Source: an uncultured Candidatus Micrarchaeota archaeon (GTDB lineage: Archaea; Micrarchaeota; Micrarchaeia; Norongarragalinales; Norongarragalinaceae). From it: a DNA stretch of 24,000 nucleotides. Under the pieces are notes generated by a model. The model was not told the origin of the DNA. It saw only the letters and a program-made list of their open reading frames with translations, and ran no database searches. This document shows, in pieces, positions 2,386 to 20,197 of the stretch. Each line of letters begins with the position of its first letter. The stretch's first letter is position 1. The position numbers and the translations under genes are program-made. The stretch is taken from contig CAITNU010000066.1 in assembly GCA_903893865.1 (NCBI GenBank), positions 1,094 through 25,093 of the forward strand, read 5' to 3'.

Positions 2386-2394
2386 GATAAGCCC

Positions 2395-3174
2395 TTACTT
2401 TCTTGTGCTTTTACTTTTTTTTGTTTTCGCGAGCTCGCCGAACTCGGCAAACAACGCCTGCGCCTCGTCTTGAGCGATGACCGCGCGCTCGAGCACGCGC
2501 TTGAACGCTAGACTGACTTTCCGTTTATCCCTAATGCCCGCGGTTTTACTGACGACGTCGGAAAAAAGTTTCTCTAGCGCCCTCCTTTTTTCAGGGGAAG
2601 TGGCTTTATAGATTTCGACGATTTCAGCTGATTCGCTTTCGCCGCGGCGGAACTCGTAAAGCATTACGGCGACGGCGTGCGAGAGATTCATAACGGCGTA
2701 ATCGCCGCTCGTTGGAATGAAAGCGCAGAAATCGCACTCGCTTATCTCGTTTTGCGCTAGCCCGCTATCCTCGGGACCGAAGACGAGCGCGACCCTCTTG
2801 ACTCTCGCATTCTTGGCTTTGTGCGCGGCTTGCGCGGCGCTCACGCAGTTCTTGAACTCAGCGGCGCGAAAACGCGAGGGAACGCCGGTTGTCGCAATCA
2901 CCAAGTCAAACCCTTTAGTTGCGCCTGCAATTTCCTCGAACACGGATGCGCTCTCCGCGAGACGCCAAGCGTGCTTAGCGTACAACCGCGTCTGAAAACC
3001 CATTTTGCAGCGCGGCGAAACCAAGCGCAAGCCCGCGTTGAAGTTCGCGCAAGCGCGCGCGGCAGCGCCCACGTTGAGTTCGTGAATCGGGCGAACGAGA
3101 ACGCAAGTCAACTCCTGCGGTTCTGGAAGTTTCGGCTTGTTTTTCTGCGTTGTTTTCTTTTGCATCGCGTTCAA
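2395..3174 (-). CDS. SPOUT-class RNA 2'-O-methyltransferase (SpoU/TrmJ-like)
   Basis: 259 aa. The C-terminal SpoU knot region VALVFGPEDSGLAQNEISECDFCAFIPTSGDYAVMNLSHAVAVMLYEF and the overall size fit the TrmJ/TrmH family. The substrate cannot be assigned from sequence alone. Confidence 0.75.
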   Translation of the reverse strand: MNAMQKKTTQKNKPKLPEPQELTCVLVRPIHELNVGAAARACANFNAGLRLVSPRCKMGFQTRLYAKHAWRLAESASVFEEIAGATKGFDLVIATTGVPSRFRAAEFKNCVSAAQAAHKAKNARVKRVALVFGPEDSGLAQNEISECDFCAFIPTSGDYAVMNLSHAVAVMLYEFRRGESESAEIVEIYKATSPEKRRALEKLFSDVVSKTAGIRDKRKVSLAFKRVLERAVIAQDEAQALFAEFGELAKTKKSKSTRK

Positions 3175-3216
3175 CCGTGTGAAACCTTTTTTAACGCTCC
3201 GTGGATAACGCTTTTC

Positions 3217-4524
3217 GTGGTTAAAAGAATTCGTTTGAAAGGCTGCCGCAGCTTCCGCACAGAATTTATTATCATCGCAGTCTTCGCCTTGCTTTGCGCG
3301 AACGTGAGTTTCGCGAACGCTTCGCTTTCAAGCAGCGCGGCGCAAGAGAAAGCAGGCGCAGTTCTCGGCGACGACGCGGGAGACGCGAACTCGCTTTCGC
3401 AACCGATGGAAGTCGGCTCGGATTCGTATTGGGTTTTCTTTTTCTCTATTTACTCGCCGAAACGCCTCCTCGTCGCGGTAAGCGATTCAAGCGGCGCCGT
3501 CGTGACCGACGAAGACAAGCTTTATCGCGTGGGAAACGCAGTCTACGATTACGCGGTAACCCAAGAGTTTTTGAAGGCGCACGGCTGGGGATTCGACGCA
3601 GTCGAACCCCTACTTAGTTCCGCCGCAGGCGCGGTTTCCGACAACCAACGCAAACTCGCCGACTTTTCAGCGCAAACGCAAGGATTGTACCCGAAACTCG
3701 AGCCCTCGTTCTCTAAAATCGACGGAGCGCTCTCGCGCTTAAGCGACCAAGCGCTCGCGGCAGACAGCGCGGCGCGCGACGGAAGCACGCTTGAAACGCA
3801 GTTCGCTTCCGATTATTCTTCTTCTTCGCTCAACGCCGTCTTCAAGCAGTACAACGCTTCACTGCGCTCGCTAGAATCGCTTTTCAACGCGCACGACGCT
3901 TACATCAAGGAAATCAACGACTTCAGTTTCGCGCTCTACAAGGCGAACGTTTCCGCAACCGACGCTTCAAGCATACAAAAGAATTTGGACGTTCTGCGCG
4001 ACGATGGACTCACTGATTTGCGCAACAAGTTCGTCTCACAAAAACCCCAGCTGGAATTCGCGCGGCTGACAGCAAGCAGCGACAAGTGGGTTAACGACAG
4101 CATCGAATCGACGCTTTATCGCATAAACCGCCAAGCCGCCTTAGACGCGGTAAGCGAACTTTACGCTTCCGTCGAAGCTTTGCTTAAAAACGAGGACAAC
4201 GTCATCGCGTGCGGTGTTTCCTCGCAAACAATAGCGCAGTTGCGCAAGGATTGGAACGACGCGCGCTATTTCCTGTCGAAGGAAACCGCCGCGGGATTCG
4301 TGAAAGCGATTGAGAAGGCGGCGCTCGTCAAAACGGAATTCGCCGAGATAAAGCGGACGTACGACTACTGCGGAACAACTCCGACGACGTCCACCACTCC
4401 AAAAACGCAGTCTACGGATTATTCGCCGTTGGTAGCCGCGATTCTTATAATTGCTTTGGCGATAGCGGCTTACGCTTACTATCGAAAGAAGCAGGAAGAA
4501 CTCCAGGATTACGGCGGCCAGTAA
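3217..4524 (+). CDS. Hypothetical type I surface protein (signal peptide, largely helical ectodomain, Thr-rich stalk, C-terminal TM anchor)
   Basis: The track ORF 2821..4524 has a 5' part that overlaps the SPOUT gene on the other strand. Plausible starts are GTG 3217 or TTG 3235, giving VKRIRLKGCRSFRTEFIIIAVFALLCANVSFANA (signal peptide). The C-terminus is TTPTTSTTPKTQSTDYSPLVAAILIIALAIAAYAYYRKKQEE (stalk, TM, basic tail). I recognise no family. Confidence 0.6.
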   Translation: MVKRIRLKGCRSFRTEFIIIAVFALLCANVSFANASLSSSAAQEKAGAVLGDDAGDANSLSQPMEVGSDSYWVFFFSIYSPKRLLVAVSDSSGAVVTDEDKLYRVGNAVYDYAVTQEFLKAHGWGFDAVEPLLSSAAGAVSDNQRKLADFSAQTQGLYPKLEPSFSKIDGALSRLSDQALAADSAARDGSTLETQFASDYSSSSLNAVFKQYNASLRSLESLFNAHDAYIKEINDFSFALYKANVSATDASSIQKNLDVLRDDGLTDLRNKFVSQKPQLEFARLTASSDKWVNDSIESTLYRINRQAALDAVSELYASVEALLKNEDNVIACGVSSQTIAQLRKDWNDARYFLSKETAAGFVKAIEKAALVKTEFAEIKRTYDYCGTTPTTSTTPKTQSTDYSPLVAAILIIALAIAAYAYYRKKQEELQDYGGQ

Positions 4525-4543
4525 ACGCTTGCGGGCGCTTGGA

Positions 4544-4888
4544 ATGAATTTGAACAACCCGTTTTCGATTATAGTTTTTTTCGCCGCCGTTATAATTCTA
4601 TTTTTTATTTCTTCTGGTTGGTTGTTTTCTGACTGCGGTCCTTTTAGTATGATGCAAGACTGCAGACGCGGCCCGAGCCAGCAGGAAACGTGCTTGCAAC
4701 AACTGGCTATGGCAGCAAATTGTTACACCGTCAGCGCTAGCTGGAATCCGCTAGGCGAAGTTTCAGGAGAAGCCGTACCAAAATGCAGGGAAATCAAAAC
4801 CCCTATTGCCGCGTGCTCGAACAATTCTCCTCGAGGAAGTTACTCCACGCAAACCGAAAAATACTGTTGCGGACCGCAGCCAGCTTAG
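4544..4888 (+). CDS. Small Cys-rich secreted/anchored protein, paralog of the pilin at 7317..7637 but with a degenerate leader
   Basis: The start is probably ATG 4544 (MNLNNPFSIIVFFAAVIILFFISSGWLF), though the track gives TTG 4529. Its C-terminal domain shares C-x2-QLA-x3-CY-x4-SWNP(L/V)G, IAAC and a terminal YCCGxxP with ORF 7317..7637. Local GC is lower than in neighbouring genes. Confidence 0.6.
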   Translation: MNLNNPFSIIVFFAAVIILFFISSGWLFSDCGPFSMMQDCRRGPSQQETCLQQLAMAANCYTVSASWNPLGEVSGEAVPKCREIKTPIAACSNNSPRGSYSTQTEKYCCGPQPA

Positions 4889-4897
4889 AAAGCGCCT

Positions 4898-5446
4898 TCA
4901 AATTTTCAGAACATCGTAGCACTTGCGCACCGCAGCGTAATTCTTCGCCGCTACGACTTCGTTGAACCGGCGCTTGATGGCTTTCTCGATGCTCTCAAGC
5001 GTGACGAGCCCGCTCGCCTTCGCGAACGCGCCGAGAATAATAGTGTTCACGAAAGGCGCGCCCAACATTTCTCTAGCTATAGAATAAGCGTCAACCGTCA
5101 AAACACGCGTTCCCTTCGGCGCAGCGAAATCGCCAGCGGCGCGCTTCGTGGCGATGATTGCTATCGTTCCGTTCTTTGTTCCACCAGCGAACGCCGCGTC
5201 CGCCAGCGTCTCGTCGAGAACAAGCAGATAATCAGGCTCGCGCACTTCCTCGTGCAATCGCACGCGCTCGCCTTCTTTCGCGTCAGCGATTCTGCAGAAC
5301 GCCTTCACCGGCGCGCCGCTGCGCTCGGGACCGAACGCTGGAAACGATTGAGCGTTCTTCCCGTCGTTGAACGCTGCGTTCGCAAGAATTTCGCCGCTCG
5401 TCACCGCGCCTTGCCCGCCCCTGCCGTGAAAACGAATTTCAATCAT
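4898..5446 (-). CDS. porG: Pyruvate/2-oxoacid:ferredoxin oxidoreductase gamma subunit
   Basis: [53 protein letters not shown] is the canonical POR/VOR gamma N-terminus. I place the start at ATG 5446 (the homolog-like MIEIRFHG); the track's TTG 5497 adds 17 atypical residues. No alpha, beta or delta subunit genes lie adjacent. Confidence 0.8.
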
Positions 5447-5518
5447 TCTCAAAAACCAAACCAAACCGTCAGAAGTAAATGTTTTCGGCGGCGACAATTT
5501 TAATCCTTGCGTTGTCCG

Positions 5519-7030
5519 TCAAACGACGTCGAAGACGAGTTTGTCGATTTCGATTAACGGCATTTTCCTGATTTGCTCGAACGCGTCCCTAATCTTCTCA
5601 GCGCTGTCGGAGTAAAACGTCGCCACGTGCTGCTTTGCCTTCACTCTCGCGCCTTTCGCGACTTCGAGAACTATTCCCGCTTCCTTGTCGCTCGGCGCGC
5701 CGAGCACTCGCGCAACCCGAGAAAGCGTCTTGTTATCAACGTGCGCGACTACGCCGCTCTCGGCAGCAAACACTTTCTGCGAGTGCTGCGCGAGGCGCAC
5801 GTCGCTCGGCCGAACGCGCGAATCGCCTCCCTGCGCTTCGATGATTTCCCGAAACTTTTCAAGCGCTTTCCCGCTGGCGAGTTGCTGCCTCGCCACTCTA
5901 TAGCCTTCCTGACGCGTTATTCCTTTTACGGCAGCGAGAAGAACGCCGCTCAACGTGCACGCTTTCTCGATCAACGGCGGTTCTTCCTTTCCTTCGAGGA
6001 GTTCAAGCACGCGCCTCGCTTCAAGCGCTGGACCAACGCAATTCATCGCCGGCCCGCTCCCGTCAGTAATAACGCAAGAAACCTCCATGTCCAAATACTT
6101 TCCAAGCGCCTCGAACGCCTTCGCTAGATCGCGCGCTTCATCCACGCTCGCGATTTTCGCGCCGCGGCCGACTGGAATATCGAGCACGACGAACTTCGCG
6201 CCTTCAGCCTTTTTTTTCGCGAGAATGCTCGCGAGGAGAAGCGATTGCGGGTCCAAACGAAGCGGATTGCGGATTTTAATGAGCTTGTCGTCCGCAGCAG
6301 CAATATTCACGGCTCCGCCCCAAATCAAGCAGCCGCCGGTTTTGTTGATAACGCGTTCGGCTTCGCGCACGCTGAGATTCACGGGCGCGAATATTTCCAT
6401 CGCATCCGCGCTCCCGCAAGCGCTGCTAATAGCGCGAGTAGCCGTTTTAGGAATCGTCAACCCCAAGGAAGCGATTATGGGCACGACGAGCATGGACGAG
6501 CGGTCGCCAGCCACGCCGCCTATGCTGTGTTCGGACACGACGGGTTTGCGTTTGCATTTGAGCACTCCGCCGCTCGCGAGAATCGCTTTCGTGAGAAAAA
6601 CCGTTTCCTCCGTATTCAAACCCTTAGTGTAAACGCCGGCGATGAAGGCGGCGCTCTCGGCGGTGCTCAAGTGTTCCTCCATCAAATCGCCGATAATCGC
6701 CTTTATTTCGGCTTCCGCGAGCGTGCCGCCGTCGAGCTTCTTGTGAATGAAATCAAGCGAAGCCGGACGCCGAGCCAAATCCGTCTCGACATTTTGCCCG
6801 TCGCGCGCGCCGAGCGCGCGTGAGACTTCCGCGAACAAACCGATTTCACCTGGCGCGACGAGTTTTTTCGAGTAGTCCACCATTGCGACGACGGTCTTGC
6901 GTCCGACGGTTAAACGCACGCGATCCGAAACGTCGAAATCCAGTTGCCCGCCGTACTTCTCGTTCAACAATGCAACATTCAGCCCGGCTTCCACGTCGAT
7001 TATCTTCGCTTTAAGCTTTACCAAAACCAA
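5519..7030 (-). CDS. deoA: AMP phosphorylase (thymidine phosphorylase family with N-terminal extension)
   Basis: 503 aa, the same length class as archaeal AMP phosphorylase. The N-terminal extension LKAKIIDVEAGLNVALLNE...RVRLTVGRKTV parallels the archaeal enzyme. Core motifs are VSEHSIGGVAGDRSSMLVVPIIASLGLTIPKTATRAISSACGSADAME, CLIWGGAVNIAAADDKL and LASILAKK. The start is TTG. Confidence 0.85.
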   Translation of the reverse strand: MVLVKLKAKIIDVEAGLNVALLNEKYGGQLDFDVSDRVRLTVGRKTVVAMVDYSKKLVAPGEIGLFAEVSRALGARDGQNVETDLARRPASLDFIHKKLDGGTLAEAEIKAIIGDLMEEHLSTAESAAFIAGVYTKGLNTEETVFLTKAILASGGVLKCKRKPVVSEHSIGGVAGDRSSMLVVPIIASLGLTIPKTATRAISSACGSADAMEIFAPVNLSVREAERVINKTGGCLIWGGAVNIAAADDKLIKIRNPLRLDPQSLLLASILAKKKAEGAKFVVLDIPVGRGAKIASVDEARDLAKAFEALGKYLDMEVSCVITDGSGPAMNCVGPALEARRVLELLEGKEEPPLIEKACTLSGVLLAAVKGITRQEGYRVARQQLASGKALEKFREIIEAQGGDSRVRPSDVRLAQHSQKVFAAESGVVAHVDNKTLSRVARVLGAPSDKEAGIVLEVAKGARVKAKQHVATFYSDSAEKIRDAFEQIRKMPLIEIDKLVFDVV

Positions 7031-7098
7031 TCACCCGAGAAACTTACAACCACCAAATCCAGTTCCCGTTTTCGTTTTTCGCTTTCGTTTTTTCGCGT

Positions 7099-7260
7099 TT
7101 GTTTTTGAATAATCCCGCGGCGCTTATTAATTGTTTTTAAATCCCGTGCGAAACACTTCGATAAACCGAATTTTTCTTGTTTTTAACCGTTTTTCCGTTG
7201 TTTTTCAACGCCGCCGCCGTTACTGCCGTTAACCGTCATTACCAGCAACGTTTTTAAATC
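7099..7260. promoter_or_regulatory. Divergent intergenic region with five copies of a TTGTTTTTNA-type motif
   Basis: Copies: ttgtttttga 7099-7108, ttgtttttaa 7131-7140, ttgtttttaa 7177-7186, ttgtttttca 7198-7207 and acgtttttaa 7248-7257. The last copy overlaps a TATA-like TTTTTAAAT (7251-7259), about 58 nt upstream of the pilin ATG. A GGGAGG SD lies at 7301-7306, 10 nt before ATG 7317. Confidence 0.3.
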
Positions 7261-7316
7261 GCCTGCGATTAACCTTTTTTGATAGTTTTAATTGATTTTA
7301 GGGAGGCGGTGCTGTA

Positions 7317-7637
7317 ATGAAGAAAGGACAAGGAACTTTTGAATACATTCTGCTACTCGCAGGAATCCTGCTAATAGTAGTCCTCGCGATAGTCCTGCTT
7401 CGCGGAGGACTGTTCGGAGGCACCTCGAATACCGTTCAAGTTAATTCTTGCAGAAACCAGTTGGCGCAGTCCGGCTGCTACTATGCCAACGGCTCTTGGA
7501 ACCCAGTCGGTGCAGCCGCGCCTTCCATTGCCGCGTGCGCTCCCCTCTATACGGTTCAAGCGGGTAATTGTCCTGCGACTGCTGCAACTGGAGCGGCTAA
7601 TGGCACAGGATATTGCTGCGGTGCGGCACCAGTTTAG
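7317..7637 (+). CDS. Type IV pilin-like protein with class III signal peptide and Cys-rich C-terminal domain (candidate major pilin)
   Basis: MKKG|QGTFEYILLLAGILLIVVLAIVLL matches the archaeal class III signal pattern (basic residue, G/A at -1, Q at +1, E at +5, hydrophobic helix; QxSxExxxL type). It has a strong SD and is followed by a long T-tract. It shares the SWNPxG / IAAC / YCCG domain with 4544..4888. Confidence 0.8.
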   Translation: MKKGQGTFEYILLLAGILLIVVLAIVLLRGGLFGGTSNTVQVNSCRNQLAQSGCYYANGSWNPVGAAAPSIAACAPLYTVQAGNCPATAATGAANGTGYCCGAAPV

Positions 7638-7647
7638 GTAATTCCCG

Positions 7648-7680
7648 TTATTTTTTGTTTTTCTTTTTCCCTTTTCTTTT
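7648..7680 (+). terminator. Oligo-T archaeal-type terminator after the first pilin gene
   Basis: ttattttttgtttttctttttcccttttctttt lies immediately 3' of the stop at 7637. Runs of T are the known archaeal termination signal. Confidence 0.5.
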
Positions 7681-7802
7681 CAAAGCCTAGTCACCAGTGG
7701 GTTTTCCAACCGCTCGAAAAAGCTTTTTTAAGCGCGCGCGAATAGCCTTAATTGCCATTCAAAGTTTTCAAGGCGTTTTCGAAGCATTCCGAGGCGATTG
7801 TT

Positions 7803-7973
7803 TTGGACGACAAGGGACAGGCCGCAGTCGAATACATTCTCTTAGTAGCGTTAGGCTTGTTCCTCATGATAATCGCATTCACGCTCGCGTTCTACGTCAA
7901 ACAATTCACTGATGTAACGCTCAGCGACATTGCCGCGACTCGCAACGAAACCATTTCCATGCTATTCGGCTAA
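7803..7973 (+). CDS. Very small type IV pilin-like protein (class III signal peptide)
   Basis: ...DDKG|QAAVEYILLVALGLFLMIIAFTLAF. The track starts at TTG 7752. I prefer TTG 7803 because GAGG at 7791-7794 sits 8 nt upstream and the leader MDDKG then resembles MKKG of the first pilin. A TATA-like TTTTTTAAG lies at 7724-7732. Confidence 0.65.
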   Translation: MDDKGQAAVEYILLVALGLFLMIIAFTLAFYVKQFTDVTLSDIAATRNETISMLFG

Positions 7974-8003
7974 ACCGCGCGCATCCCCGCTCTTCTCCTC
8001 CGT

Positions 8004-8975
8004 TTGCTTTTAATTCAAACGCGCGCTACTTTTCCTATGCCTGAATCATTAGCCGGTTTAGCTTCGCTCGCGGTTCTCGCGCTCGCCTCGATTGCGGCGG
8101 CGCACCACGACTACCGCTCACGACGCATTCCCAACGCCATTCCTTGGCTCGCGCTCGCCTTCAGCCTCGCTTTCGCGCTGCTCGCTCGCGCGCCGCCGTT
8201 GTATTACGCGCTCGTTCTCGTCGCGTTCGCCTTCGCGCTATTGCTTTATTTCGTCGGCGCTTGGGCCGGGGGGGACGCAAAATTCTTTACCGCGTGCCTT
8301 GCGCTGCTTGCGCTCGCGCGATTCCCAACGCAAATCGCGGACGTGCTTTTGCTGCCTGCAGGCGTTTTCTTGCTCGCCGCGGCGCTTACGGCGCCTTTCG
8401 CGTTGTTTGCGAGGCGCGAGCGCGCGTGGCGAGAACGCCGCGTGCTCGCGGGCGCGTTTGTTGCGAGCGTGAAAGACGCTGTTGGCGGCGCGTTGCTTGC
8501 GGGCTTGGTGCACGCGCTCGGCGTAATCGCGTTTTCTTGGAGCCTTGACGGAATCGTTTCTTCGCTTGCTGCGGGGGCGGCAGGCGTTTTCGCTGCGTCG
8601 TTCGTGTTGCGCGCCGCGTTTTTCGCAGCGGGGCTCTTAAAAGAAAAAATTCCTTTGCAGCAAGTGCGCGAAGGAATCGTGCCGGCGCAAACTCTTTACT
8701 TGGACTCGAACGACGCGCTTCGCTCGTGGGGTTGGCGGGACTCGCTTCGTTCGGCACTGCACGGCGGAAAATCAAGTTTTAAGCCTCGCGGCAGGGTTTT
8801 GTGCGACGCGCGGCGCGCAGCGGGACTCACGGCGCTCGAAGCGCGGGAACTGAAAAAGGTTTTAAAGTCGCGCGGCGTTGGATTCTTGCTCGCGGCAGAT
8901 GCGCTGCCTTTCGCGCCGCAAGTCGGCGCAGCGGCTTTCGCGCTCGCGCTACTGCGTTTCGTTTCGCTGGTTTGA
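8004..8975 (+). CDS. Archaeal type IV prepilin/preflagellin peptidase (A24 aspartic peptidase; FlaK/PibD/EppA-like)
   Basis: The first catalytic Asp context is HHDYRSRRIPNAIPW, after TM1. The second catalytic Asp lies in GAWAGGDAKFF (GxGD type). The C-terminal LPFAPQVGAAAFALALL corresponds to the PFGP-type last helix. The protein is polytopic and Ala/Leu rich. An alternative start is ATG 8037. Confidence 0.85.
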   Translation: MLLIQTRATFPMPESLAGLASLAVLALASIAAAHHDYRSRRIPNAIPWLALAFSLAFALLARAPPLYYALVLVAFAFALLLYFVGAWAGGDAKFFTACLALLALARFPTQIADVLLLPAGVFLLAAALTAPFALFARRERAWRERRVLAGAFVASVKDAVGGALLAGLVHALGVIAFSWSLDGIVSSLAAGAAGVFAASFVLRAAFFAAGLLKEKIPLQQVREGIVPAQTLYLDSNDALRSWGWRDSLRSALHGGKSSFKPRGRVLCDARRAAGLTALEARELKKVLKSRGVGFLLAADALPFAPQVGAAAFALALLRFVSLV

Positions 8976-9025
8976 CGGTTTTTTCGATTTCAGTTTGGTT
9001 TCTTGATTTCGCGCGGGGGATAAAC

Positions 9026-9544
9026 TTGATTTTTTCGAGCGATGCAAAAAGAAAAGCGCAGTTGAGCGTCGAATTCTTTCTCGTCCTGTCGATAATAATC
9101 GCGTTCAGCATGATTTTGTACAACATTTCGCGAAACGAAGTCGCGAGAACAAAAGCGCTCGACGCGGCAGTGATTTCGAAAAGCTCGCTCGACTCGCTCA
9201 CGCAAGCGACCGATTTCGCGGCGTTGAGCGGCAACGGAAGCGCGTTGAACTTAAGCGTCTTCGTTCCGCCGGGAGCGTATTGTTTTTACTACAATACTAC
9301 GCGCAAAGCGTACTTTTGCATCATCGCGAACGTAACCCCGACAACTGCGGGGCAGGTCGGGCAACAATCGTCGGACCAGCAAATGCTTTACATCTACGGC
9401 GCACGCTCGGCTTCAACGCTCCCGAAAAACTTCGATACGCTTTGCGCTAGCACCATCCAGCAAGGCGGGTTGAGCGCGGGTTGGTGGGAGTTGCGCGCGC
9501 AAAGCAACGGCGATTACGTCAACGTCTCGTGCGCGCGCAGGTGA
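9026..9544 (+). CDS. Pilin-like protein with class III signal peptide
   Basis: The track ORF 8801..9544 overlaps the peptidase gene. The in-frame TTG 9026 is preceded by GGGGGA (9015-9020) and gives MIFSSDAKRKA|QLSVEFFLVLSIIIAFSMIL. The mature part has several N-x-S/T sequons and 4 Cys. Confidence 0.7.
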   Translation: MIFSSDAKRKAQLSVEFFLVLSIIIAFSMILYNISRNEVARTKALDAAVISKSSLDSLTQATDFAALSGNGSALNLSVFVPPGAYCFYYNTTRKAYFCIIANVTPTTAGQVGQQSSDQQMLYIYGARSASTLPKNFDTLCASTIQQGGLSAGWWELRAQSNGDYVNVSCARR

Positions 9545-9610
9545 ACAACGCGCCGCGAAAGCGCATGCGAGGCGTAAAATCGTTCAATCGTTTTCAAAAG
9601 GTGTTTTTCG

Positions 9611-10018
9611 TTGGTTTCGTTTTCCCGCGGCCAAGCAAGCATGGAATACGTTTTCATTCTATCCCTCGTTTTAGGCTTCGTTGTGGCGTTGATGATTACA
9701 GGCATACGCGAAAGCGAGTTGAACATGGCTACGGGCTCCGCCCGTGCTGCAGCCGTTTACTGGACTGCAGGCAATTCGTCGTTTTACTTGACTTCGCTTA
9801 ACCACATTCAATCTTGGCGCAGCGTCAACTTTTCGCCCGTGATTTACTCGTGGGCGGGCGGCACAAACAATGGAAGACTCCAACCGCTTCCAAGCGATTT
9901 GAAAAAGCAGATGATAACCGCGGTGCAAAAAACAGTGGCGCCCCTCGCGCCTACGCCGGCAACGTATTGTTTTCAATCAACTAATTTCGATTACTGCATC
10001 GTCGACTCGATACCGTGA
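9611..10018 (+). CDS. Pilin-like protein with class III signal peptide
   Basis: MVSFSRG|QASMEYVFILSLVLGFVVALMI. An AAGGTG SD at 9598-9603 lies 7 nt before TTG 9611. Confidence 0.75.
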   Translation: MVSFSRGQASMEYVFILSLVLGFVVALMITGIRESELNMATGSARAAAVYWTAGNSSFYLTSLNHIQSWRSVNFSPVIYSWAGGTNNGRLQPLPSDLKKQMITAVQKTVAPLAPTPATYCFQSTNFDYCIVDSIP

Positions 10019-10087
10019 AAAAACGCTGAAAAAAATCTGAACACGCCTAACACTCGAAAAACGAACGCTCGAAAATCGCTGAGAGGA

Positions 10088-10714
10088 TTGCCGCGCTTGC
10101 CAACGAAACAATTGAAAGCGAAAGCAAAACCGAACCACTTCAACAACGCTGCGGCGGCGCCGCAGCGCTTGCAACAGCTCCTGCAGGTTTTGCTTTTAAT
10201 CATGCTCGCATCCAGCGTGGCGCTCTCTTTTTCCGCGCCAGCTGCGGCGTGGCTCGCGCTCGCGATTTTCGCAATCGCCGCGTTCGCCGTCGCTTTGCGC
10301 TTGCCTGAAAGCGAACGCCGCGCAGGCCTCGCGCTCGCCGTCTTGCTTTTCGCTTTGTCCGCATTCTTCGTTTTCTTCGCCTCGCTCGGCGGCGAACTCT
10401 ACCAAAAAATTTTTCTCGTTCCGCTTTTCATCGCCGTTTTTCTCGCATTCTTCATCGCTGCTCGCCGCTTTCTCTTCTCCGCGCCAGCCAAAGCGCGCGT
10501 GCTCGCTTGCACTAAAAACTGGGTTGTAGTGCGCGTTGAACGCGGTTCGCTCGCGAGCGAAGCCGCGCCCGGAGTCTACGCAGCTCGCTGCGCAGAGCGC
10601 CGCGCGGGCAACGCGCGCAGTCTCAAGGAAGACGATTTGGTTCTCGTGCGGTTTCAAGCGAAAGGCTTGCTCGGACGACTCGGCGTTGGCGAACGCGAGG
10701 CGGTAATCGATTGA
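10088..10714 (+). CDS. Hypothetical membrane protein (about 4 TM helices plus a ~75 aa C-terminal beta-rich soluble domain)
   Basis: Hydrophobic segments include AAWLALAIFAIAAFAVAL, LALAVLLFALSAFFVFFASL and IFLVPLFIAVFLAFFIAA. The C-terminal region is KARVLACTKNWVVVRVERGSL...DDLVLVRFQAKG (OB/NfeD-like pattern, tentative). The start is uncertain (TTG 10088 or ATG 10202). The stop overlaps the next start (TTGA). Confidence 0.5.
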   Translation: MPRLPTKQLKAKAKPNHFNNAAAAPQRLQQLLQVLLLIMLASSVALSFSAPAAAWLALAIFAIAAFAVALRLPESERRAGLALAVLLFALSAFFVFFASLGGELYQKIFLVPLFIAVFLAFFIAARRFLFSAPAKARVLACTKNWVVVRVERGSLASEAAPGVYAARCAERRAGNARSLKEDDLVLVRFQAKGLLGRLGVGEREAVID

Positions 10715-11154
10715 ACCCCGCCAAAAATCAAGAACAAAAAAATCCGTTAAACGCCGCGAACCACCAACAACGGTTAGCGTTGTTTTGCGCCGCGCTATCG
10801 CTCGCGTGCCTAGCCGCAATCGCGTTATTCGTTCGCTCGACTCCGCCCATCGAAAGCGACGTCGCTCTTCTCAGCTCGCAGGACGAAGGCTCCTTCATCG
10901 CAGCAACAGGCAAACTCGCGGCGCCGCGTTACAGCGCGAGCAGCGGAAGCTTCAGCGGAATGCTCTGCCAAAGCGCCTGCATTTCCTTCTTCATCTCGCC
11001 GCAACTCGCTAACGAAATAACGAGCTCGAGAATCGATTTGCGAACACTGCGCTCCGGCGCGAGACTCCGAGTCGAAGGCATTTTACGCGAAGACGCGCGC
11101 GGACTGGAAATCGAAGTTGAAACGCCGAACGGACTCGAACTGCTATCGAGCTAA
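10711..11154 (+). CDS. Hypothetical N-terminally TM-anchored protein with OB-fold-like domain
   Basis: A TM helix LALFCAALSLACLAAIALFV follows a polar N-terminus. Next comes GSFIAATGKLAAPRYSASSGSFSGMLCQSACISFFI...LRSGARLRVEGILREDARGLEIEV, an alternating beta pattern typical of OB-fold barrels (tentative). The TTG start overlaps the previous stop by 4 nt. Confidence 0.5.
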   Translation: MNPAKNQEQKNPLNAANHQQRLALFCAALSLACLAAIALFVRSTPPIESDVALLSSQDEGSFIAATGKLAAPRYSASSGSFSGMLCQSACISFFISPQLANEITSSRIDLRTLRSGARLRVEGILREDARGLEIEVETPNGLELLSS

Positions 11155-11184
11155 CGCGTTCCGAACTAGCGCGTTCCGAGTTGA

Positions 11185-12522
11185 TTGTTTTTGGATTTCT
11201 TTGCAGTTCTTTTCGCTTTCTTCTCGGGCTTCGCCGCGGGCGTTTCCGGCGCGCTTCCGTTCGTGCACACGAACAACGTTCTAGCCGCGTTCGCATCCAT
11301 CGATTTTGGTGCGTTCAGCACGCCGATCGCAGCAAGCGTATTCGCAGTCGCGCTATCGTTTTCGCACCTCGCGTTCGAAACGATTCCCGCGCTGTTTCTC
11401 GCGCTGCCCGCTCAAAACCAGTCAGTTGTCGCGTTGCCAGCGCAGCGACTCGTCCTGCAAGGCCGCGCAGAACACGCGCTTTTTCTGATAAGCCGCTCGC
11501 TCTTCCTCGCGCTCCTCGCGAGCTTGTGCCTCGCGCCCCTAGCGCTTTTCGCGCTGCCAACGCTTTTCGCAGCAGCGAAACCGTTTTCCGCGCTAGCGTT
11601 GATTGCGATAGTCGCGCTCGCGGTAGCGCGCGAGCGGGGCGGCGAGCACGATGCGCGCGATGGGAGCGAAACGCTTGCTGGACGCGCCGAGCGCGCCGGG
11701 CTAGCGAGACGTGCGAAGCGCGTCGCGCTCGCAATCGGCGTTTTCGTTTTAAGCGGCGCGGTTGGCTTCGCGGCGCTAACGCTGCCCGTCTGCCGTCAGC
11801 CGTTGTTTCCGCTGCTTGCCGGACTTTTCGGCGTGCCTGCAGTGCTTTTTTCTTTCGGCGCGAAACCGGAGAAACTAAAAACCGAAGTGGATGACGGCGG
11901 AAACGCGTTTTCGTTGCAGGCGGCCAAGCCCGTTGATTGGCGGCTCGTGCTCGCGGGCGTTCTAGTCGGCGCGTTGAGCGTGCTTTTCCCCGCGCTCAGC
12001 CCCGCGTTGTTGTGCGGCGCGATCTTCTTTTTCCTCGAGTCCGACGCGGAAGCGTTTCTCGAAGCCAGCAGCGCGCTCGTTGCAGCAAAAATGTTTTTCG
12101 ATTTCGCGGGCGTGTTCGCAATAGGCAAAGCGCGTTCGGGCGCGGCCGCGTTCGCGCTCGAAGCGTTCGCTTCGCAACGCGCTGCGGCGTCGCTCGCGGA
12201 CTACGCGCTCGTTTGCGTCGCAGCGCTCGCCGCGCTCGCGCTCGGACTCGCGCTGCTGTTGGCGTTGCGCAAGCGCTTCGCCGCGTTTTTCCTGCGCGTT
12301 TCCGGAAACGCTTTTTCCGCTTCGCTCTTGGTTTTAGTAGCGCTCGGCTCGCTTGCGTTTTCCGGTTGGGGCGGACTCCTCGTTCTCGCTGCGGCAGGCG
12401 CAGCCGGCTGCGTCGCGCCGTTGCTTGGATTGAAGCGGAGTTACGCTATGGGCGCGTTGTTCGTTCCGTCGATTTTGTTCTCTCTCGGCGCCACGGGCGG
12501 CGTTGCGCAGTTGTTTTATTAA
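11185..12522 (+). CDS. Polytopic membrane protein, TctA/DUF112-like (tentative)
   Basis: 445 aa, about 10-12 TM helices. The N-terminal GFAAGVSGALPFVHTNNVLAAF resembles the G..G..PG(I/V)H.N motif of archaeal DUF112/TctA-family proteins. A second-half echo LAGVLVGALSVLFPALSPALL suggests an internal repeat. It is not T2SSF/FlaJ-like, having no ~100 aa helical cytoplasmic domains. Confidence 0.5.
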   Translation: MFLDFFAVLFAFFSGFAAGVSGALPFVHTNNVLAAFASIDFGAFSTPIAASVFAVALSFSHLAFETIPALFLALPAQNQSVVALPAQRLVLQGRAEHALFLISRSLFLALLASLCLAPLALFALPTLFAAAKPFSALALIAIVALAVARERGGEHDARDGSETLAGRAERAGLARRAKRVALAIGVFVLSGAVGFAALTLPVCRQPLFPLLAGLFGVPAVLFSFGAKPEKLKTEVDDGGNAFSLQAAKPVDWRLVLAGVLVGALSVLFPALSPALLCGAIFFFLESDAEAFLEASSALVAAKMFFDFAGVFAIGKARSGAAAFALEAFASQRAAASLADYALVCVAALAALALGLALLLALRKRFAAFFLRVSGNAFSASLLVLVALGSLAFSGWGGLLVLAAAGAAGCVAPLLGLKRSYAMGALFVPSILFSLGATGGVAQLFY

Positions 12523-12569: not shown

Positions 12570-13055
12570 TTGACTGAATTGACGAAAGAAAAAAATGGGA
12601 AACACAAGGCTCAGGTTTCCGTCGAACTCTTCCTAGGCATGACGTTCTTCCTGTTAGTGCTTTACTGGATGAACCACTTCGTCGCGACTCAACGCGACGC
12701 AAGCACCACGCTCGTCGACCAGGAAAAACTCGTTGCCGCCTCGCTCGCGCAAATAGCGAACTCGGTTTGCGCGTCGAACACTTCCGTTGATTACGTTCTG
12801 CCTTGCATTTACCTTGAAGGACGCGACGTGAATTACTCGCTTGGCGCGGGCGGCGATAACGTCATTCGCATTATTCCCGAACGGGCGGGCGCGCTTTCGG
12901 CGCAGCAGGCCGCGTTATGCAATTTTTCTGCTGTAGCCGTGAAGGCGCGCTGCGTGACCGCAAACGGCGAAAAAAATGCGGGAATTGTTTGCGTGAACGC
13001 TTCCTCAGAAGGAGGCGTCCGGCGCGTTGGCGTTTCAAGCGGAGAGTGCGAATAA
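12570..13055 (+). CDS. Pilin-like protein with class III signal peptide
   Basis: MTELTKEKNGKHKA|QVSVELFLGMTFFLLVLYWM. The mature domain has 7 Cys. It is the first of four translationally coupled genes. Confidence 0.7.
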   Translation: MTELTKEKNGKHKAQVSVELFLGMTFFLLVLYWMNHFVATQRDASTTLVDQEKLVAASLAQIANSVCASNTSVDYVLPCIYLEGRDVNYSLGAGGDNVIRIIPERAGALSAQQAALCNFSAVAVKARCVTANGEKNAGIVCVNASSEGGVRRVGVSSGECE

Positions 13056-13492
13056 TGGTTTTACGACAAACGGAAAGACGAAACGAAAAGCGCGGGGCCG
13101 CTCGGCGGGCGCAGTTGTTGAGCGTTGATTTTCTCGTCGCAGTCTCGATTCTCGCGGTGTGCGTGGGCGCGATTATGCAGTTCAACGAATTCTCGCATTC
13201 GCGCGCCGAACTCGCGGCGTTTCTCGCGAACAACAAGGCGGAATCGATAGCCGCACTCATTCACGATGAAGGTTTTCAAGCGGTTCCGCCAAACACTGAA
13301 TACTGCGCCCGCCACGTGTTTTTAGAAGGCGGCGTGCAGCAAATCCAGGAAGTATTTGGCGATTGCTCCGGTTTTTCTTGCAGCAGCCGCGGTGTTTTCT
13401 CCGCGAGACGCCTCGAATCCTGCGTTCCTTCGCCTACCGCAACGCCAGTGCCTTCGCCCGTCGCATGCGTTTTGGAGGTTAGAGCTTGTTAA
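13055..13492 (+). CDS. Pilin-like protein (variant class III signal peptide)
   Basis: ATG 13055 overlaps the preceding TAA (TAATG). The product begins MVLRQTERRNEKRGAARRA|QLLSVDFLVAVSILAVCVGAI. The track ORF 12917.. is a 5' over-extension into the previous gene. Confidence 0.6.
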   Translation: MVLRQTERRNEKRGAARRAQLLSVDFLVAVSILAVCVGAIMQFNEFSHSRAELAAFLANNKAESIAALIHDEGFQAVPPNTEYCARHVFLEGGVQQIQEVFGDCSGFSCSSRGVFSARRLESCVPSPTATPVPSPVACVLEVRAC

Positions 13493-13929
13493 CGCCGCTG
13501 AAGCGATTTGCAATCAAGCGCAGTCGCGCGTTCATCTTCACTATCGACGCGCTTTTCGCTCTCGCGCTCGTTTCAACGCTCGTCACGCTGTTCGCTTTCG
13601 CTTACCTCCCGCCCGCCAGAAACGAAAAATTTTTCGAGCTCGAACAACTCGGCTTCGACTCGCTCGCGCTCGAATACAACGAAACGAATTCAGTACAGCT
13701 CAGCAACGCTGAATTCTTTGCTTTGACTAGATTTCAACGCTTCGGCAACGCGAGCGACGCGGAAAACGCGGGCGCGAACACCATCGCGAGAGCGCGGTTT
13801 TACCACTACCCGTCGTTGTGCAATTGCGAGGCGTTTCCCTGTATTACGTCACGGGACGACGGAAACCTATCTGCCAGCGATCTCGGTTCTAGCAACGAAA
13901 ACTATTCTGAAGTTTGGGTGACGCCCTAA
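13486..13929 (+). CDS. Pilin-like protein (RA|F-type class III signal peptide)
   Basis: MLTPLKRFAIKRSRA|FIFTIDALFALALVSTLVTLFAF. The TTG start overlaps the previous gene by 7 nt. Confidence 0.6.
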   Translation: MLTPLKRFAIKRSRAFIFTIDALFALALVSTLVTLFAFAYLPPARNEKFFELEQLGFDSLALEYNETNSVQLSNAEFFALTRFQRFGNASDAENAGANTIARARFYHYPSLCNCEAFPCITSRDDGNLSASDLGSSNENYSEVWVTP

Positions 13930-14496
13930 ATGTTTTCAAAAATTTCTTTTCCAAAAACGTTTTCGCGCAAACGCGCGTTCACGTCAACGCTAATCGCGGT
14001 CCTCGCAATCGTCTTCATCAGCGGCATCGCGGCGGTGCTAATCGCTTCGTCGGCCCAGCAGCGCGCGCTCCTCTCGTCCTTCGAATCGCGCAAAGTAGCC
14101 AACCACTTCGCAAACTCGGTTTCGTTCCTCAACGCTTCCTTCCGCGACGCTTTGCTCGACTACGAATTCGCGAGCACGGGGTGCGGTGGCTCAGGAGCGC
14201 CGAACTTTGAGGATTTAAGCGACGGCTATCTGTCGGCGGCGGCGCGCGAACTCAATTCAAGCGGGGTATACACGAGCTACTCGAATCTGGTCACTCAAAC
14301 TAGCGAACCTGATGAAGTAATGCCGGGGTTCGATGAGGCATTCGTCACTAATGCGACGTTCGACTTATTCGTCAATTATGGCAGTGCAAGAAAAAACGAG
14401 TCCGTCTTCCTCGAACAAAGAATAGACGTGAACAACACGGGCGCAGGCGAGTGGACGGCGAACGTCAGCGGATTCGAAATAACGGTTACGTGCTAA
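13930..14496 (+). CDS. Pilin-like protein (RA|F-type class III signal peptide)
   Basis: MFSKISFPKTFSRKRA|FTSTLIAVLAIVFISGIAAVLIA. The ATG immediately follows the previous stop (TAAATG). Confidence 0.6.
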   Translation: MFSKISFPKTFSRKRAFTSTLIAVLAIVFISGIAAVLIASSAQQRALLSSFESRKVANHFANSVSFLNASFRDALLDYEFASTGCGGSGAPNFEDLSDGYLSAAARELNSSGVYTSYSNLVTQTSEPDEVMPGFDEAFVTNATFDLFVNYGSARKNESVFLEQRIDVNNTGAGEWTANVSGFEITVTC

Positions 14497-14704: not shown

Positions 14705-15256
14705 GTGCTAATGCTCGCCTACTCGATCCTGCCAAAACCAGAAACGAAAACAACCAGCAACGACGCCTACACGCTGTTGTTGAACGACTTGGCGCAGCAA
14801 GGCATCGCTCGAGACGAGATTCAAATCTTCAACTTTACTGGCAGCGGCGGCGTGTGGACTACGGACGTAATCGTAACGCGCGCGCCGCACTCGAAATGCC
14901 CGACTTCTGAAAAACGCTCTTACTCCGACGTTCTTTCGTTCAAGTACCGGCCAGAACAATTAATCAAAGACTGTGCCGAGCGCTCGCCGATTGTGCTGCG
15001 CGAAGAAGCGATAATCGATTCGGGCGTTATCCCGCAAACAGCCGGCGCGGATTACGCGTGCGCTTTCTCCGCCGAGGAAATCGCGCACTACGACAACGAC
15101 GAGGCGCTCGCTTACTGCCCGCTAGTTTCGTCCGCCGACCTCTTGTCTTTCGCCCAAGACGTTCCAACCGGGTCGTGGGCAATCCAGTGGAACAAGAACG
15201 ACGCGACGATTTTCGTCGCCTTGGATGCGTACGGAAACGTGCTGAAAACATCTTAA
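14705..15256 (+). CDS. Hypothetical N-terminally anchored extracytoplasmic protein
   Basis: 183 aa from GVG-free canonical start GTG 14705. The hydrophobic helix continues upstream of this start in the same frame (..FKSVVALAGLIVVLMLAYSIL), so the real start may be non-canonical near 14660 (see findings). I recognise no family. Confidence 0.5.
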   Translation: MLMLAYSILPKPETKTTSNDAYTLLLNDLAQQGIARDEIQIFNFTGSGGVWTTDVIVTRAPHSKCPTSEKRSYSDVLSFKYRPEQLIKDCAERSPIVLREEAIIDSGVIPQTAGADYACAFSAEEIAHYDNDEALAYCPLVSSADLLSFAQDVPTGSWAIQWNKNDATIFVALDAYGNVLKTS

Positions 15257-15356: not shown

Positions 15357-16661
15357 GTGGTTTTAATGGGTTTCGTCCGCCTCGGCTGCAAGCCAAACGA
15401 AAACGACTTGGTCGCGGAATACTACTTCGAGCCGGCGCGAGGCGTTACGCCGAAATACGCTTGCGAACAACTCGCCGCGGAAAGCTCTATCGGAACGTGG
15501 ACGGCAATCGCGACTCTCAAACCGCGAACTGCAGCGCGCCTCGCACCAAAAATTTTTCACCTCAAACGGCGCGGCGCGGGCTTCGTCGCGCGCATCGCTT
15601 ACCCAGACGAGCTTTTCGAAGCGGGTAGCGCGCCGCAGTTGATGAGCGCGATAGCCGGAAACGTTTTCGGCATGCGCGTGGTCGATTCGCTTCGCCTGAA
15701 CGATTTTACTTTGACGAAAACGCTGATCAACGCCTTCAAGGGCCCGCAACTCGGCATTTCAGGAGTCCGTAAAATGCTTCGCGTTCCGCGCCGCCCATTG
15801 TGTGGCACGATAATCAAACCGAAAGTCGGCTTGAACGAGCGAGAACACGCCGGCGTTGCTTACGATTGCTGGGTTAACGGACTCGACCTCGTGAAAGACG
15901 ATGAGAATCTCACGAGCATGCGATTCAATAATTTCGAGAAACGGCTCGCAGCCACGCTTGAAGCAATGGACCGCGCACAAAGCGAAACTGGCGAACGCAA
16001 GCTGTACGTCTGCAACGTCTCTGCGGAAACGAACGAGATGCTGCGCCGCGCACAACTCGTGAAAGACAACGGCGGAAACGTGACGATGATCGATATCCTC
16101 ACGTGCGGATGGAGCGCGTTGCAAACGCTGCGCGACGCGAACCTGCGGCTCGTTATTCACGCGCACCGCGCGGGGCACGCTGCGCTCACGCGCAACCCGC
16201 GCCACGGAATCAGCATGCTCGCCATCGCAAAACTCTCTCGCCTAATCGGAGTCGACTCGCTGCACGTCGGCGCGATTTACGGGAAAATGGAAGGCAACGC
16301 AAGCGAAGTCCTCGAACTCGTAAAAGAAATTCAGAGCCCGCGAGTTGCGAAAGACGAAGCGCAAGGCGCGCTCGAGCAAAACTGGTTCGGGCTCGCGCCT
16401 GTTTTCGCCGTCGCGAGCGGCGGATTGCACCCAGGCGTGCTCCCGCAAGTCGTTGCCGCGATGGGCAACGACGTGTTTCTTCAGGCGGGAGGCGGAGTCA
16501 GTGGGCATCCGGACGGCGTCGCTGCAGGCGCGAGGGCAACCCGACAGGCCATTGATGCCGTAAGCGCTGGAGTTCCTTTGCGTGAATACGCTTTTGAGCA
16601 CGTCGAGTTAAAGCGCGCGCTGGAAAAGTGGGAAACAACCTCGCCTAAGAGCGGGAAATAA
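15357..16661 (+). CDS. rbcL: Ribulose-1,5-bisphosphate carboxylase/oxygenase large subunit, archaeal form III type
   Basis: All catalytic motifs are present: GNVFGM, GTIIKPKVGL, DLVKDDENL (the carbamylated Lys and the metal ligands), IHAHRAGHAALTR, DSLHVGA..GKMEG, VASGGLHPG and QAGGGVSGHP. No small-subunit gene is present. The length (~431-434 aa) fits form III. An alternative start is ATG 15366. Confidence 0.9.
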   Translation: MVLMGFVRLGCKPNENDLVAEYYFEPARGVTPKYACEQLAAESSIGTWTAIATLKPRTAARLAPKIFHLKRRGAGFVARIAYPDELFEAGSAPQLMSAIAGNVFGMRVVDSLRLNDFTLTKTLINAFKGPQLGISGVRKMLRVPRRPLCGTIIKPKVGLNEREHAGVAYDCWVNGLDLVKDDENLTSMRFNNFEKRLAATLEAMDRAQSETGERKLYVCNVSAETNEMLRRAQLVKDNGGNVTMIDILTCGWSALQTLRDANLRLVIHAHRAGHAALTRNPRHGISMLAIAKLSRLIGVDSLHVGAIYGKMEGNASEVLELVKEIQSPRVAKDEAQGALEQNWFGLAPVFAVASGGLHPGVLPQVVAAMGNDVFLQAGGGVSGHPDGVAAGARATRQAIDAVSAGVPLREYAFEHVELKRALEKWETTSPKSGK

Positions 16662-19636: not shown

Positions 19637-20197
19637 TTATTCTTCGTGCCTTGCGGGCGGCTTCGTGAACAAATAGTACTTCGCTTCGCCTTCCAGCTCG
19701 TGAATGATGCGCTCGACGATCAAATCCTCGATGTGGCGCAAGTGCGGAACGCGGCCGCGCACGTCCTCAAAAGACTCGAACTTCTTGCGGTCGCGCGCCT
19801 CGAGAATCGCGGCCAAATGCTTTTTCCCAACGCTCGGAATGTGCTCGAGAGTGTGCGCGCGAATGTTGATCGCGCCAGCTCGGTTGAAAAAGTCAACGAA
19901 AAACGCTTCGCGCTCCTTAACCATCTTCTTGATTACGAGCCTGGCCTCGTTTTGCGCGCTCGACGTCAAATCGCGCCACTGCACGCGTCCCTTCACGTGG
20001 TCGATTTTTTCTCTTTCCCCGCCGCCGATGTAAACGCGTTCCTCCGCCTTGAGTTTCGCCTCTGGCTTCGGCACGACTTCAAGCAGCGTAAAAAAAGTTT
20101 CGCCGACGATTTGCGCGACGGGCTCGCGCTGCGCTTCGCCTGATTTCCCGTAAGGCAAGTAGTCTAACACTAGCGCGTACTCTTCCCGCCGCTCCAT
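19637..20197 (-). CDS. DUF655-family protein (predicted OB-fold + helix-hairpin-helix nucleic-acid-binding protein, COG1491-like)
   Basis: EEYALVLDYLPYGK...EPVAQIVGETFFTLLEVVPK...ERVYIGGGEREKIDHVKGR...FVDFFNRAGAINIRAHTLEHIPSVGKKHLAAILEAR...FESFEDV. It sits in the conserved archaeal position downstream of rpl21e-rpoF. Confidence 0.8.
   Translation of the reverse strand: MERREEYALVLDYLPYGKSGEAQREPVAQIVGETFFTLLEVVPKPEAKLKAEERVYIGGGEREKIDHVKGRVQWRDLTSSAQNEARLVIKKMVKEREAFFVDFFNRAGAINIRAHTLEHIPSVGKKHLAAILEARDRKKFESFEDVRGRVPHLRHIEDLIVERIIHELEGEAKYYLFTKPPARHEE

Follow-up and report, generated by a model that had tools for sequence, protein, structure and literature searches.

In an uncultured Candidatus Micrarchaeota archaeon, a series of pilin genes is interrupted by three consecutive genes for membrane proteins, the last of which is related to the TctA family of permeases. 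Why should such genes reside within a pilin operon? The genes lie in a 24,000-nucleotide stretch of DNA (assembly GCA_903893865.1, contig CAITNU010000066.1, positions 1,094 to 25,093 of the forward strand), which is termed "the window" below, and they had been singled out in an original prediction made from the nucleotide sequence. That prediction missed a precedent: the pairing of a single-helix OB-fold protein with a TctA-like protein had already been found by genetics in the transformation of Methanococcus maripaludis. What is new is that this known candidate DNA-uptake gene pair is, in Micrarchaeota, built into a type IV pilus operon, together with a lineage-specific extra gene.

Archaea lack ComEC, and the sole candidate for the passage of DNA across their membrane during natural transformation is the OB and TctA-like pair to which a transposon screen led in one methanogen. 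We regard the chances as evenly balanced that genes 2 and 3 of the window's trio form, within their operon, a pilus-coupled DNA-uptake module.

The OB-fold and TctA-like gene pair

The trio occupies positions 10088-10714 (gene 1), 10711-11154 (gene 2) and 11185-12522 (gene 3), all on the plus strand, and is flanked by pilin-like genes and located 3' of a gene for an A24 prepilin peptidase. Because all three genes are conserved as proteins in other assemblies, they are real genes and not chance open reading frames. Database proteins that equal or nearly equal products of the window carry the label Candidatus Micrarchaeota. The predicted interruption of the pilin series by three consecutive same-strand genes is present at these coordinates, as is the translational coupling of the first two: the sequence aTTGA at 10710-10714 contains both the TTG with which gene 2 starts (10711-10713) and, overlapping it, the TGA that ends gene 1 (10712-10714). 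Homologues of the gene 2 product (P0013 and P0014) retain the same N-terminus. The spacing of 30 nt that was predicted before gene 3 depends on which of two alternative TTG codons is its start. It is correct if the start is at 11185, whereas the start at 11191 that is used in public gene calls gives 36 nt and a protein of 443 aa (P0001).

The product of gene 3 matches the TctA profile (PF01970) from position 1 to position 422 of 423, with a score of 82.3 bits (cut-off 28.9) and an E-value of 3.6e-23. Membership in this family, at full length, bears out the resemblance to TctA/DUF112 that was originally noted. A crude Kyte-Doolittle scan, which does not resolve the exact number of helices, detects approximately 12 hydrophobic segments. 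The N-terminal and second-half motifs that had suggested the resemblance correspond to two family-wide TctA-like motifs, G-x-x-P-[GF]-x-H-x-N and L-L-P-[GA]-x-x-P-A. TctB and TctC, whose presence nearby would have pointed to an ordinary tricarboxylate transporter, are encoded by none of the window's open reading frames that were scanned, as the original prediction required. Among solved structures, no relatives of TctA are detectable by sequence.

Relatives of gene 3 are numerous. A full-library HMMER search produced 1070 representative clusters at E <= 1e-3, and a scan for the TctA-like gene with a 20-sequence alignment, in which each species was represented by one genome, produced at least 568 species-level genome matches. 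The best 80 of these at least 568 matches are almost all from DPANN archaea (Micrarchaeota, Woesearchaeota, Pacearchaeota, Nanoarchaeota and Aenigmarchaeota), with one from Thermoplasmatota, and the names of the clusters add Parvarchaeota, Thermoplasmata and one metagenome-assembled genome of Methanobacteriota. Among the matches listed, the archaeal relatives are mostly 380-450 aa long; bacterial TctA proteins have approximately 500 aa. Gene 3 also encodes, at 11630-11720 (residues ~150-178), a highly charged insert of about 30 residues (ERGGEHDARDGSETLAGRAERAGLARRAKR) that is absent from most homologues and breaks most HMMER alignments into two stretches.

The gene 2 product has one N-terminal hydrophobic helix that is followed by a predicted OB domain, an identity that is well supported only at the level of the family. 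An orthologue at the same position in another Micrarchaeota-type locus (L001) is 35% identical and scores 28.7 bits against the OB-fold profile PF01336, above the cut-off of 27. Among 53 aligned family members, PF01336 is detected in 41 (best E-value 5e-11) and the related PF13742 in 23. When the family profile is compared with the PDB, it matches OB domains of RPA32, STN1, AspRS, the PolD small subunit, YhaM and the periplasmic protein YgiW. Two of the 53 members also weakly match DUF4131, the family of the ComEC N-terminal domain (E 0.003). An outward-facing OB domain is suggested only by the short lysine-rich N-terminus; a positive-inside analysis of the anchor, with a crude 15-residue window, was ambiguous.

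To establish how far the pair extends, open reading frames were called in all 86 loci under study, and iterative profiles were built from each gene of the window's cluster. The gene 2 family is present in 55 of the 86 loci. In 44 loci, the OB gene immediately precedes the TctA-like gene in the same orientation, at a distance of -25 to +40 nt, and in nine others it lies 0.2-4.2 kb upstream on the same strand. The gene that abuts TctA also encodes a single-helix protein, with at least one OB-like domain, in L070 (Thermoplasmatota) and in L002 and L003, two GC-rich loci of euryarchaeal type that have MC1 or HTH_10 neighbors; in a five-sequence test, the profile E-values were 2.5e-10, 6.8e-5 and 1.3e-3, respectively. 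Because the pairing recurs across DPANN and non-DPANN-type loci, a tethered OB-fold protein and a short TctA-like protein constitute a two-gene module that is broadly distributed in archaea. Genes 2 and 3 are best read as the Micrarchaeota version of this widespread module, which lacks TctB and TctC and in which the OB gene is translationally coupled to the permease gene.

Outside Micrarchaeota, the recurrent neighbors of the pair are housekeeping genes such as those for LonB and the PolD large subunit. In loci of Woesearchaeota, Pacearchaeota and Nanoarchaeota type, the pair very often adjoins a gene, usually divergent, for a membrane protein of 615-690 aa (L010, L014, L015, L023, L026, L027, L030, L034, L036, L039 and about 18 more). 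In three examples this neighbor is the archaeal LonB protease, as identified by Pfam in one and by reading of the sequence in two, and the gene for the PolD large subunit recurs on the other side. Two loci, L011 and L081, come from metagenome-assembled genomes labelled as bacterial (Dehalococcoidales and Alphaproteobacteria). Both carry a short archaeal-type TctA-like gene and have 33-35% GC, and L011 carries the OB gene as well; they are probably misbinned DPANN contigs.

The pair in M. maripaludis consists of the adjacent genes MMJJ_13020 and MMJJ_13030, both of which are essential for natural transformation, as determined with transposon hits, clean deletions and complementation (Fonseca et al. 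2023, PMC10133366). MMJJ_13030 is annotated as "TctA family" and has 11 helices, and MMJJ_13020 is a single-helix OB-fold protein. The pair resides at a locus apart from the epd genes, and the type IV-like (Epd) pili are themselves essential for transformation. A TctA-like homologue in Methanoculleus thermophilus is essential as well. The same study proposes that the TctA-like protein is the DNA transporter so far missing in archaea, and it notes that archaea are without TctB and TctC (PMC10133366). A search of later literature on the archaeal pair found nothing beyond this 2022/2023 study. The window has the same arrangement, in that a single-helix protein with a PF01336-type OB domain (at family level) is encoded directly upstream of a co-oriented TctA-like gene, again without TctB or TctC. 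Genes 2 and 3 are presumably orthologous to the methanogen pair.

A pilus operon in Micrarchaeota

From about 7.3 to 15.3 kb, the window is a single tightly packed plus-strand cluster of pilin-type genes around the trio. Reading frames overlap or sit a few tens of bases apart, and a gap of ~200 nt separates genes H and I. The cluster contains the following genes.

7317-7637, plus strand: pilin A, 106 aa, likely of major type; PF04021 (Class III signal peptide), E 8e-8
7803-7973, plus strand: short pilin B (the open reading frame opens at 7752; the likely start is TTG at 7803); class-III-type N-terminus ...DDKGQAAVEYILLVALGLF, read from sequence
8004-8975, plus strand: prepilin (class III signal) peptidase of the A24 family; PF01478, E 1.1e-8, and a weak match to Arc_PepC
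9026-9544, plus strand: pilin-like C (alternative start TTG at 8972, overlapping the peptidase stop); N-terminus ...KRKAQLSVEFFLVLSIIIAF
9611-10018, plus strand: pilin D; PF04021, E 0.0014
10088-10714, plus strand: gene 1 (protein P1), four transmembrane helices and a C-terminal beta domain; the start may be at 10097
10711-11154, plus strand: gene 2 (protein P2), N-terminal membrane anchor and a predicted OB-fold domain of nucleic-acid-binding type; TTG start
11185-12522 (or from 11191), plus strand: gene 3 (protein P3), TctA-family polytopic membrane protein of the archaeal short type; PF01970
12570-13055, plus strand: pilin-like E; N-terminus ...KHKAQVSVELFLGMTFFLLVLY
13055-13492, plus strand: pilin-like F (its ATG at 13055 overlaps the stop of E); N-terminus MVLRQTERRNEKRGAARRAQLLSVDFLVAVSILAV
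13486-13929, plus strand: pilin-like G; N-terminus ...KRSRAFIFTIDALFALALVSTLVTLF; family in 8 loci
13930-14496, plus strand: pilin-like H; N-terminus ...RKRAFTSTLIAVLAIVFISGIAAVLI; family in 7 loci
14705-15256, plus strand: gene I, the conserved final gene of the cluster; family in 6 loci, always after H

Besides A and D, six more genes encode an N-terminal [KR]-[GA]-[QF]...E/D pattern and a hydrophobic helix, as read from sequence. The window contains both pilins with class III signals and an A24 prepilin peptidase, as is typical of archaeal type IV pilus (type IV filament, TFF) systems. A T2SSE ATPase and a T2SSF platform gene were not found among the scanned open reading frames of its 24 kb.

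The individual families recur in related loci. The pilin A family, which occurs as tandem copies in related loci, is found in nine loci, always in the orientation of TctA and upstream of it, and the pilin B family is present in 11. Orthologues of the peptidase occupy the same position in eight loci, and the homologue of pilin-like C in L001 is at 8820-9269. The pilin D family occurs in 10 loci at a median offset of -1.3 kb from TctA, and it directly precedes the OB gene where gene 1 is absent. On the other side, an orthologue of pilin-like E follows TctA in L001, L006, L009, L012 and L074, and the pilin-like F family lies downstream of TctA in eight loci. Gene I has no Pfam or NCBIfam match.

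The order of these genes is fixed in every locus of Micrarchaeota type: pilins A/B, A24 peptidase, pilins C/E and D, gene 1 (where present), the OB gene, the TctA-like gene, pilins E, F, G and H, and gene I. The loci of this type are the window, L001, L004-L009, L012, L013 and L074, which represent about nine distinct lineages when L004, L005 and L006 are grouped. Across them, the TctA-like protein is 32-64% identical to that of the window, and GC content is 47-61%. Among the 86 loci, embedding of the pair in a pilus operon is limited to this type. Thus, the synteny with pilin and peptidase genes on which the original prediction depended exists in every Micrarchaeota-type locus, but in the other loci, which are mostly from other DPANN archaea, the pair stands by itself.

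In L009, genes for a T2SSE ATPase (E 7e-48) and a T2SSF platform protein (E 1e-19) are directly upstream of the operon, and in L074 two T2SSF genes precede it. Because ordinary T2SSF and T2SSE genes adjoin the same operon in these syntenic loci, the earlier suggestion that the trio supplies a novel platform or secretion component is unsupported. The presence of two platform genes is the stated hallmark of archaeal TFF system 1, a system that is present in DPANN and to which the Epd pilus of Methanococcales belongs (Makarova et al. 2016; bioRxiv 10.64898/2026.04.22.720090). A pilus system of the Methanococci group has also been reported in the genome of the Micrarchaeota isolate Mia14. We infer that the window's operon belongs to system 1.

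The impression that a TctA-like permease had not been described in systems of this kind agrees with two censuses of archaeal pili. The terms TctA, tricarboxylate, permease and OB-fold do not occur in the main text of the first (Makarova et al. 2016), nor do TctA, tricarboxylate and OB-fold in that of the second (bioRxiv 10.64898/2026.04.22.720090).

Several of the related loci have further features. In L001, the region upstream of the peptidase (1226-8104) contains four tandem paralogues for a secreted Cys/Trp-rich protein of ~230 aa, one of them interrupted by a run of N, and a gene for a surface protein of 1321 aa that weakly matches NosD. In L013, a gene for a Yip1-domain membrane protein (815-1396; PF04893, E 4e-17) is inserted among the upstream copies of pilin A. 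L058, a DPANN locus not of Micrarchaeota type, has the pair at 924-2507 and a pilus cluster about 4 kb away at 6541-12499. That cluster comprises six class-III-type pilin genes, a T2SSE ATPase gene (E 3e-35) and what may be the beginning of a platform gene, and three genes for cysteine-rich secreted proteins on the opposite strand separate it from the pair. We do not count L058 as independent support for a pilus link, as one such case in about 70 loci is comparable to chance proximity.

Gene 1 has a narrower distribution than its neighbors. Only four clusters among 5.8 billion proteins contain it, and it is found only in L004, L005, L006, L013, L074 and the window, where pilin D invariably precedes it and the OB gene follows. 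It is absent from L001, L007, L008 and L009, and L012 cannot be judged because the contig begins inside the OB gene. The homologues are 27-98% identical and share four helices and a C-terminal motif around G-V-Y-A; one of them (P0015) begins with MPTKQ, which makes 10097 a possible start for gene 1. The protein has four hydrophobic segments and a beta-rich tail of ~70 residues, and an AlphaFold2 model (pLDDT 58) shows four helices and about five strands. No Pfam or NCBIfam family matches it, a profile search of the PDB returned nothing, and a DUF2101 match (E 0.05) is weak and restricted to one homologue (P0018).

The original prediction assigned OB-like domains to genes 1 and 2 alike. For gene 2 this assignment holds at family level, whereas for gene 1 it is weak: Foldseek searches with the model found only weak matches (E 0.06-0.5), all of them OB/S1-type barrels. 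The possibility that the beta domain is a diverged copy of the OB domain of gene 2 was rejected, since a profile-profile comparison aligned 13 columns with a probability of 1%. The proposed relationship to NfeD also failed, as neither gene 1 nor its homologues match PF01957 at E <= 1-5. The position of gene 1 and its four helices recall TctB, but searches with thresholds as loose as E <= 1-5 gave no sequence support for this in gene 1 or in its homologues. We treat gene 1 as a lineage-specific membrane accessory.

The cluster is flanked by a gene of the thymidine/AMP-phosphorylase family (5519-7030, minus strand) and by a gene for a form III-like RuBisCO large subunit (15357-16661, plus strand). 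The archaeal AMP (nucleotide salvage) pathway has AMP phosphorylase and RuBisCO as its two signature enzymes. This pair of flanking genes hints at a theme of DNA or nucleotide scavenging, although it is not conserved: RuBisCO directly follows gene I in the close relative L006 but not in more distant Micrarchaeota loci. A few kb downstream of the cluster is a gene for a DUF655 protein with a helix-hairpin-helix motif (19637-20197, minus strand; PF04919, E 2e-60). Farther on, a 279-aa open reading frame (21591-22430, plus strand) weakly resembles the SLT domain of lytic transglycosylases (PF01464, E 1e-6, with no single stretch passing alone), a match that would be unusual in an archaeon if real.

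A possible pilus-coupled DNA-uptake module and its alternatives

In the reading that we favor, the surrounding pilins, after processing by the A24 peptidase, would form a pilus that captures extracellular DNA. The OB-fold protein would take over the DNA at the membrane surface, in a role like that of ComEA or of the OB domain of ComEC. The TctA-like protein would then provide or energize passage through the membrane, as hypothesized for the methanogen protein (Fonseca et al. 2023), and the gene 1 product would be an optional lineage-specific membrane accessory. Both the binding of DNA by the OB protein and the conduit role of the TctA-like protein are presumed here.

Several points count against a DNA-uptake module of this kind. 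The pair is not in a pilus context in ~70-75 of the 86 loci, which are mostly from other DPANN archaea. Gene 2 itself matches PF01336 with an E-value of 0.01, which is below threshold, and its AlphaFold2 model, calculated from a three-sequence alignment, has a pLDDT of 38 and is unusable. The OB domain is acidic on average, with a mean net charge of -3.2 over the C-terminal 90 aa and a positive charge in 10 of the 53 members, and YgiW, a periplasmic OB protein, is among the best PDB matches of the family. TctA proteins are secondary transporters of small anions that are related to elevator transporters of the TRAP DctM type, and their fold is not obviously fit for the threading of a polymer. 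Moreover, the methanogen study gives no piliation status for the OB or TctA mutants (PMC10133366). Because piliation of the mutants is unreported, the transformation defect of M. maripaludis could be indirect.

An indirect defect would fit an alternative in which the OB and TctA-like proteins, together with the gene 1 product, serve assembly, anchoring, modification or dynamics of the pilus, and the loss of transformation in methanogens is secondary. Such a role would suit the location of the trio in mid-operon, where reading frames overlap or nearly abut, the conservation of operon order across Micrarchaeota, and the description of TFF system 1 as having several uncharacterized accessory proteins. 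However, we think that it is unlikely. Most of the 86 loci have the pair beside genes such as those for LonB and PolD instead of pilus genes, and the pair of M. maripaludis is likewise separate from epd (PMC10133366). In addition, syntenic loci already have the standard T2SSF genes, with the T2SSE ATPase in L009, and neither census of archaeal pili names TctA, tricarboxylate or an OB fold in its main text.

The original prediction also allowed for a transporter that is co-regulated with the surface structure, and this is still a live rival. A version of it that resembles the Sulfolobus bindosome, in which pilus-like machinery serves substrate-binding proteins and transporters, would have the pilin-like proteins form a short surface structure for nutrient uptake. 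The OB protein would replace TctC, gene 1 would stand in the place of TctB, and the complex would import a small molecule, such as carboxylates, nucleotides or oligonucleotides, from a host or the environment. Tripartite tricarboxylate transporter (TTT) systems consist of a binding protein, a small four-helix subunit and a large subunit, and the order of a four-helix protein, a tethered binding-type domain and TctA mimics them. The full-length TctA match of gene 3, the acidic OB domain, the similarity of its profile to periplasmic YgiW, and the flanking genes of the AMP/nucleoside-phosphorylase family and form III-like RuBisCO would also agree with nutrient import. Nevertheless, gene 1 has no similarity to TctB and gene 2 has none to TctC/Bug, and roughly half of the Micrarchaeota lineages lack gene 1, as do all of the remaining loci that were examined. 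Import of small molecules also poorly explains the total loss of plasmid transformation in two methanogens (PMC10133366), and we consider this explanation improbable.

Least credible by far is an ordinary tricarboxylate transporter, or else membrane genes unrelated to pili that entered the pilin cluster at random. Only the Pfam family name speaks for such an explanation. Against it stand the lack of TctB and TctC nearby, the length of the listed archaeal relatives (mostly 380-450 aa, shorter than bacterial TctA), the same insertion point and order in about nine Micrarchaeota lineages at 32-64% TctA identity, and the translational coupling.

If the DNA-uptake reading is right, it can be extended to a self-contained archaeal competence machine, which we propose tentatively and with some doubt. 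This machine would combine a pilus of system-1/Epd type with a tethered OB-fold DNA receptor and a conduit of TctA fold. A secondary-transporter fold would have been exapted as an archaeal DNA translocator, the counterpart of ComEC, through which host-dependent DPANN archaea would import DNA for nucleotides and genes. Micrarchaeota have reduced genomes and depend on hosts, and the operon nominates them as likely DNA scavengers.

Whichever function applies, the pair is part of a pilus operon across a whole DPANN lineage, and in places it is contiguous with T2SSF genes and, in L009, with the T2SSE ATPase gene. This arrangement supports, independently and from comparative genomics, a functional link between the pilus and the pair, a link that in methanogens is based on phenotypes alone. 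It also offers a compact operon for co-folding, co-purification and heterologous tests, and flags gene 1 as a lineage-specific third component.

Comparison with known systems

Like TFF system 1 and the Epd pilus, the operon has many diverse pilins and an A24 peptidase, and two platform genes are present in the syntenic locus L074. In the window itself, no ATPase or platform gene was found among the open reading frames scanned.

The similarity to bacterial TctABC is that gene 3 matches the TctA profile end to end. There is also a superficial likeness to the gene order tctC-tctB-tctA, in that genes for a small four-helix protein and for a binding domain of extracytoplasmic type lie just ahead of gene 3. 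However, there is no similarity to TctB (PF07331) or to TctC/Bug (PF03401), and the upstream partner is instead a predicted tethered OB fold. The relatives of gene 3 differ as well in size (mostly 380-450 aa, not ~500), and their context here is one of pilus genes and not of carboxylate metabolism.

The Sulfolobus bindosome (Bas) is comparable in that a pilus-like assembly system is genetically coupled to substrate uptake through a membrane transporter. In Bas, it is the binding proteins that have class III signal peptides, and they supply ABC transporters, whereas the window encodes a binding-type protein with an ordinary anchor and a TctA-like transporter.

The closest counterpart is MMJJ_13020/13030. 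The two pairs agree in Pfam family names, in the combination of a single-helix OB protein with a polytopic TctA-like protein, in adjacency and order, and in the absence of TctB and TctC, and the organism that carries the methanogen pair also depends functionally on type IV-like pili. The likeness is one of family annotation, architecture and gene order. Whereas the M. maripaludis pair is away from the epd loci, the pair of the window is inside the pilin and peptidase operon, with gene 1 added.

ComEC carries an OB fold. Nevertheless, Pfam matches for the ComEC competence domain in P3 and for the helix-hairpin-helix domain of ComEA in P2 were both absent when P1-P3 were scanned. A likeness to the bacterial competence machinery (the comG pilus operon, ComEA and ComEC) would therefore be analogous and not homologous. 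The logic of the two systems would be the same: a filament with major and minor pilins, a prepilin peptidase, an anchored DNA receptor and a polytopic conduit.

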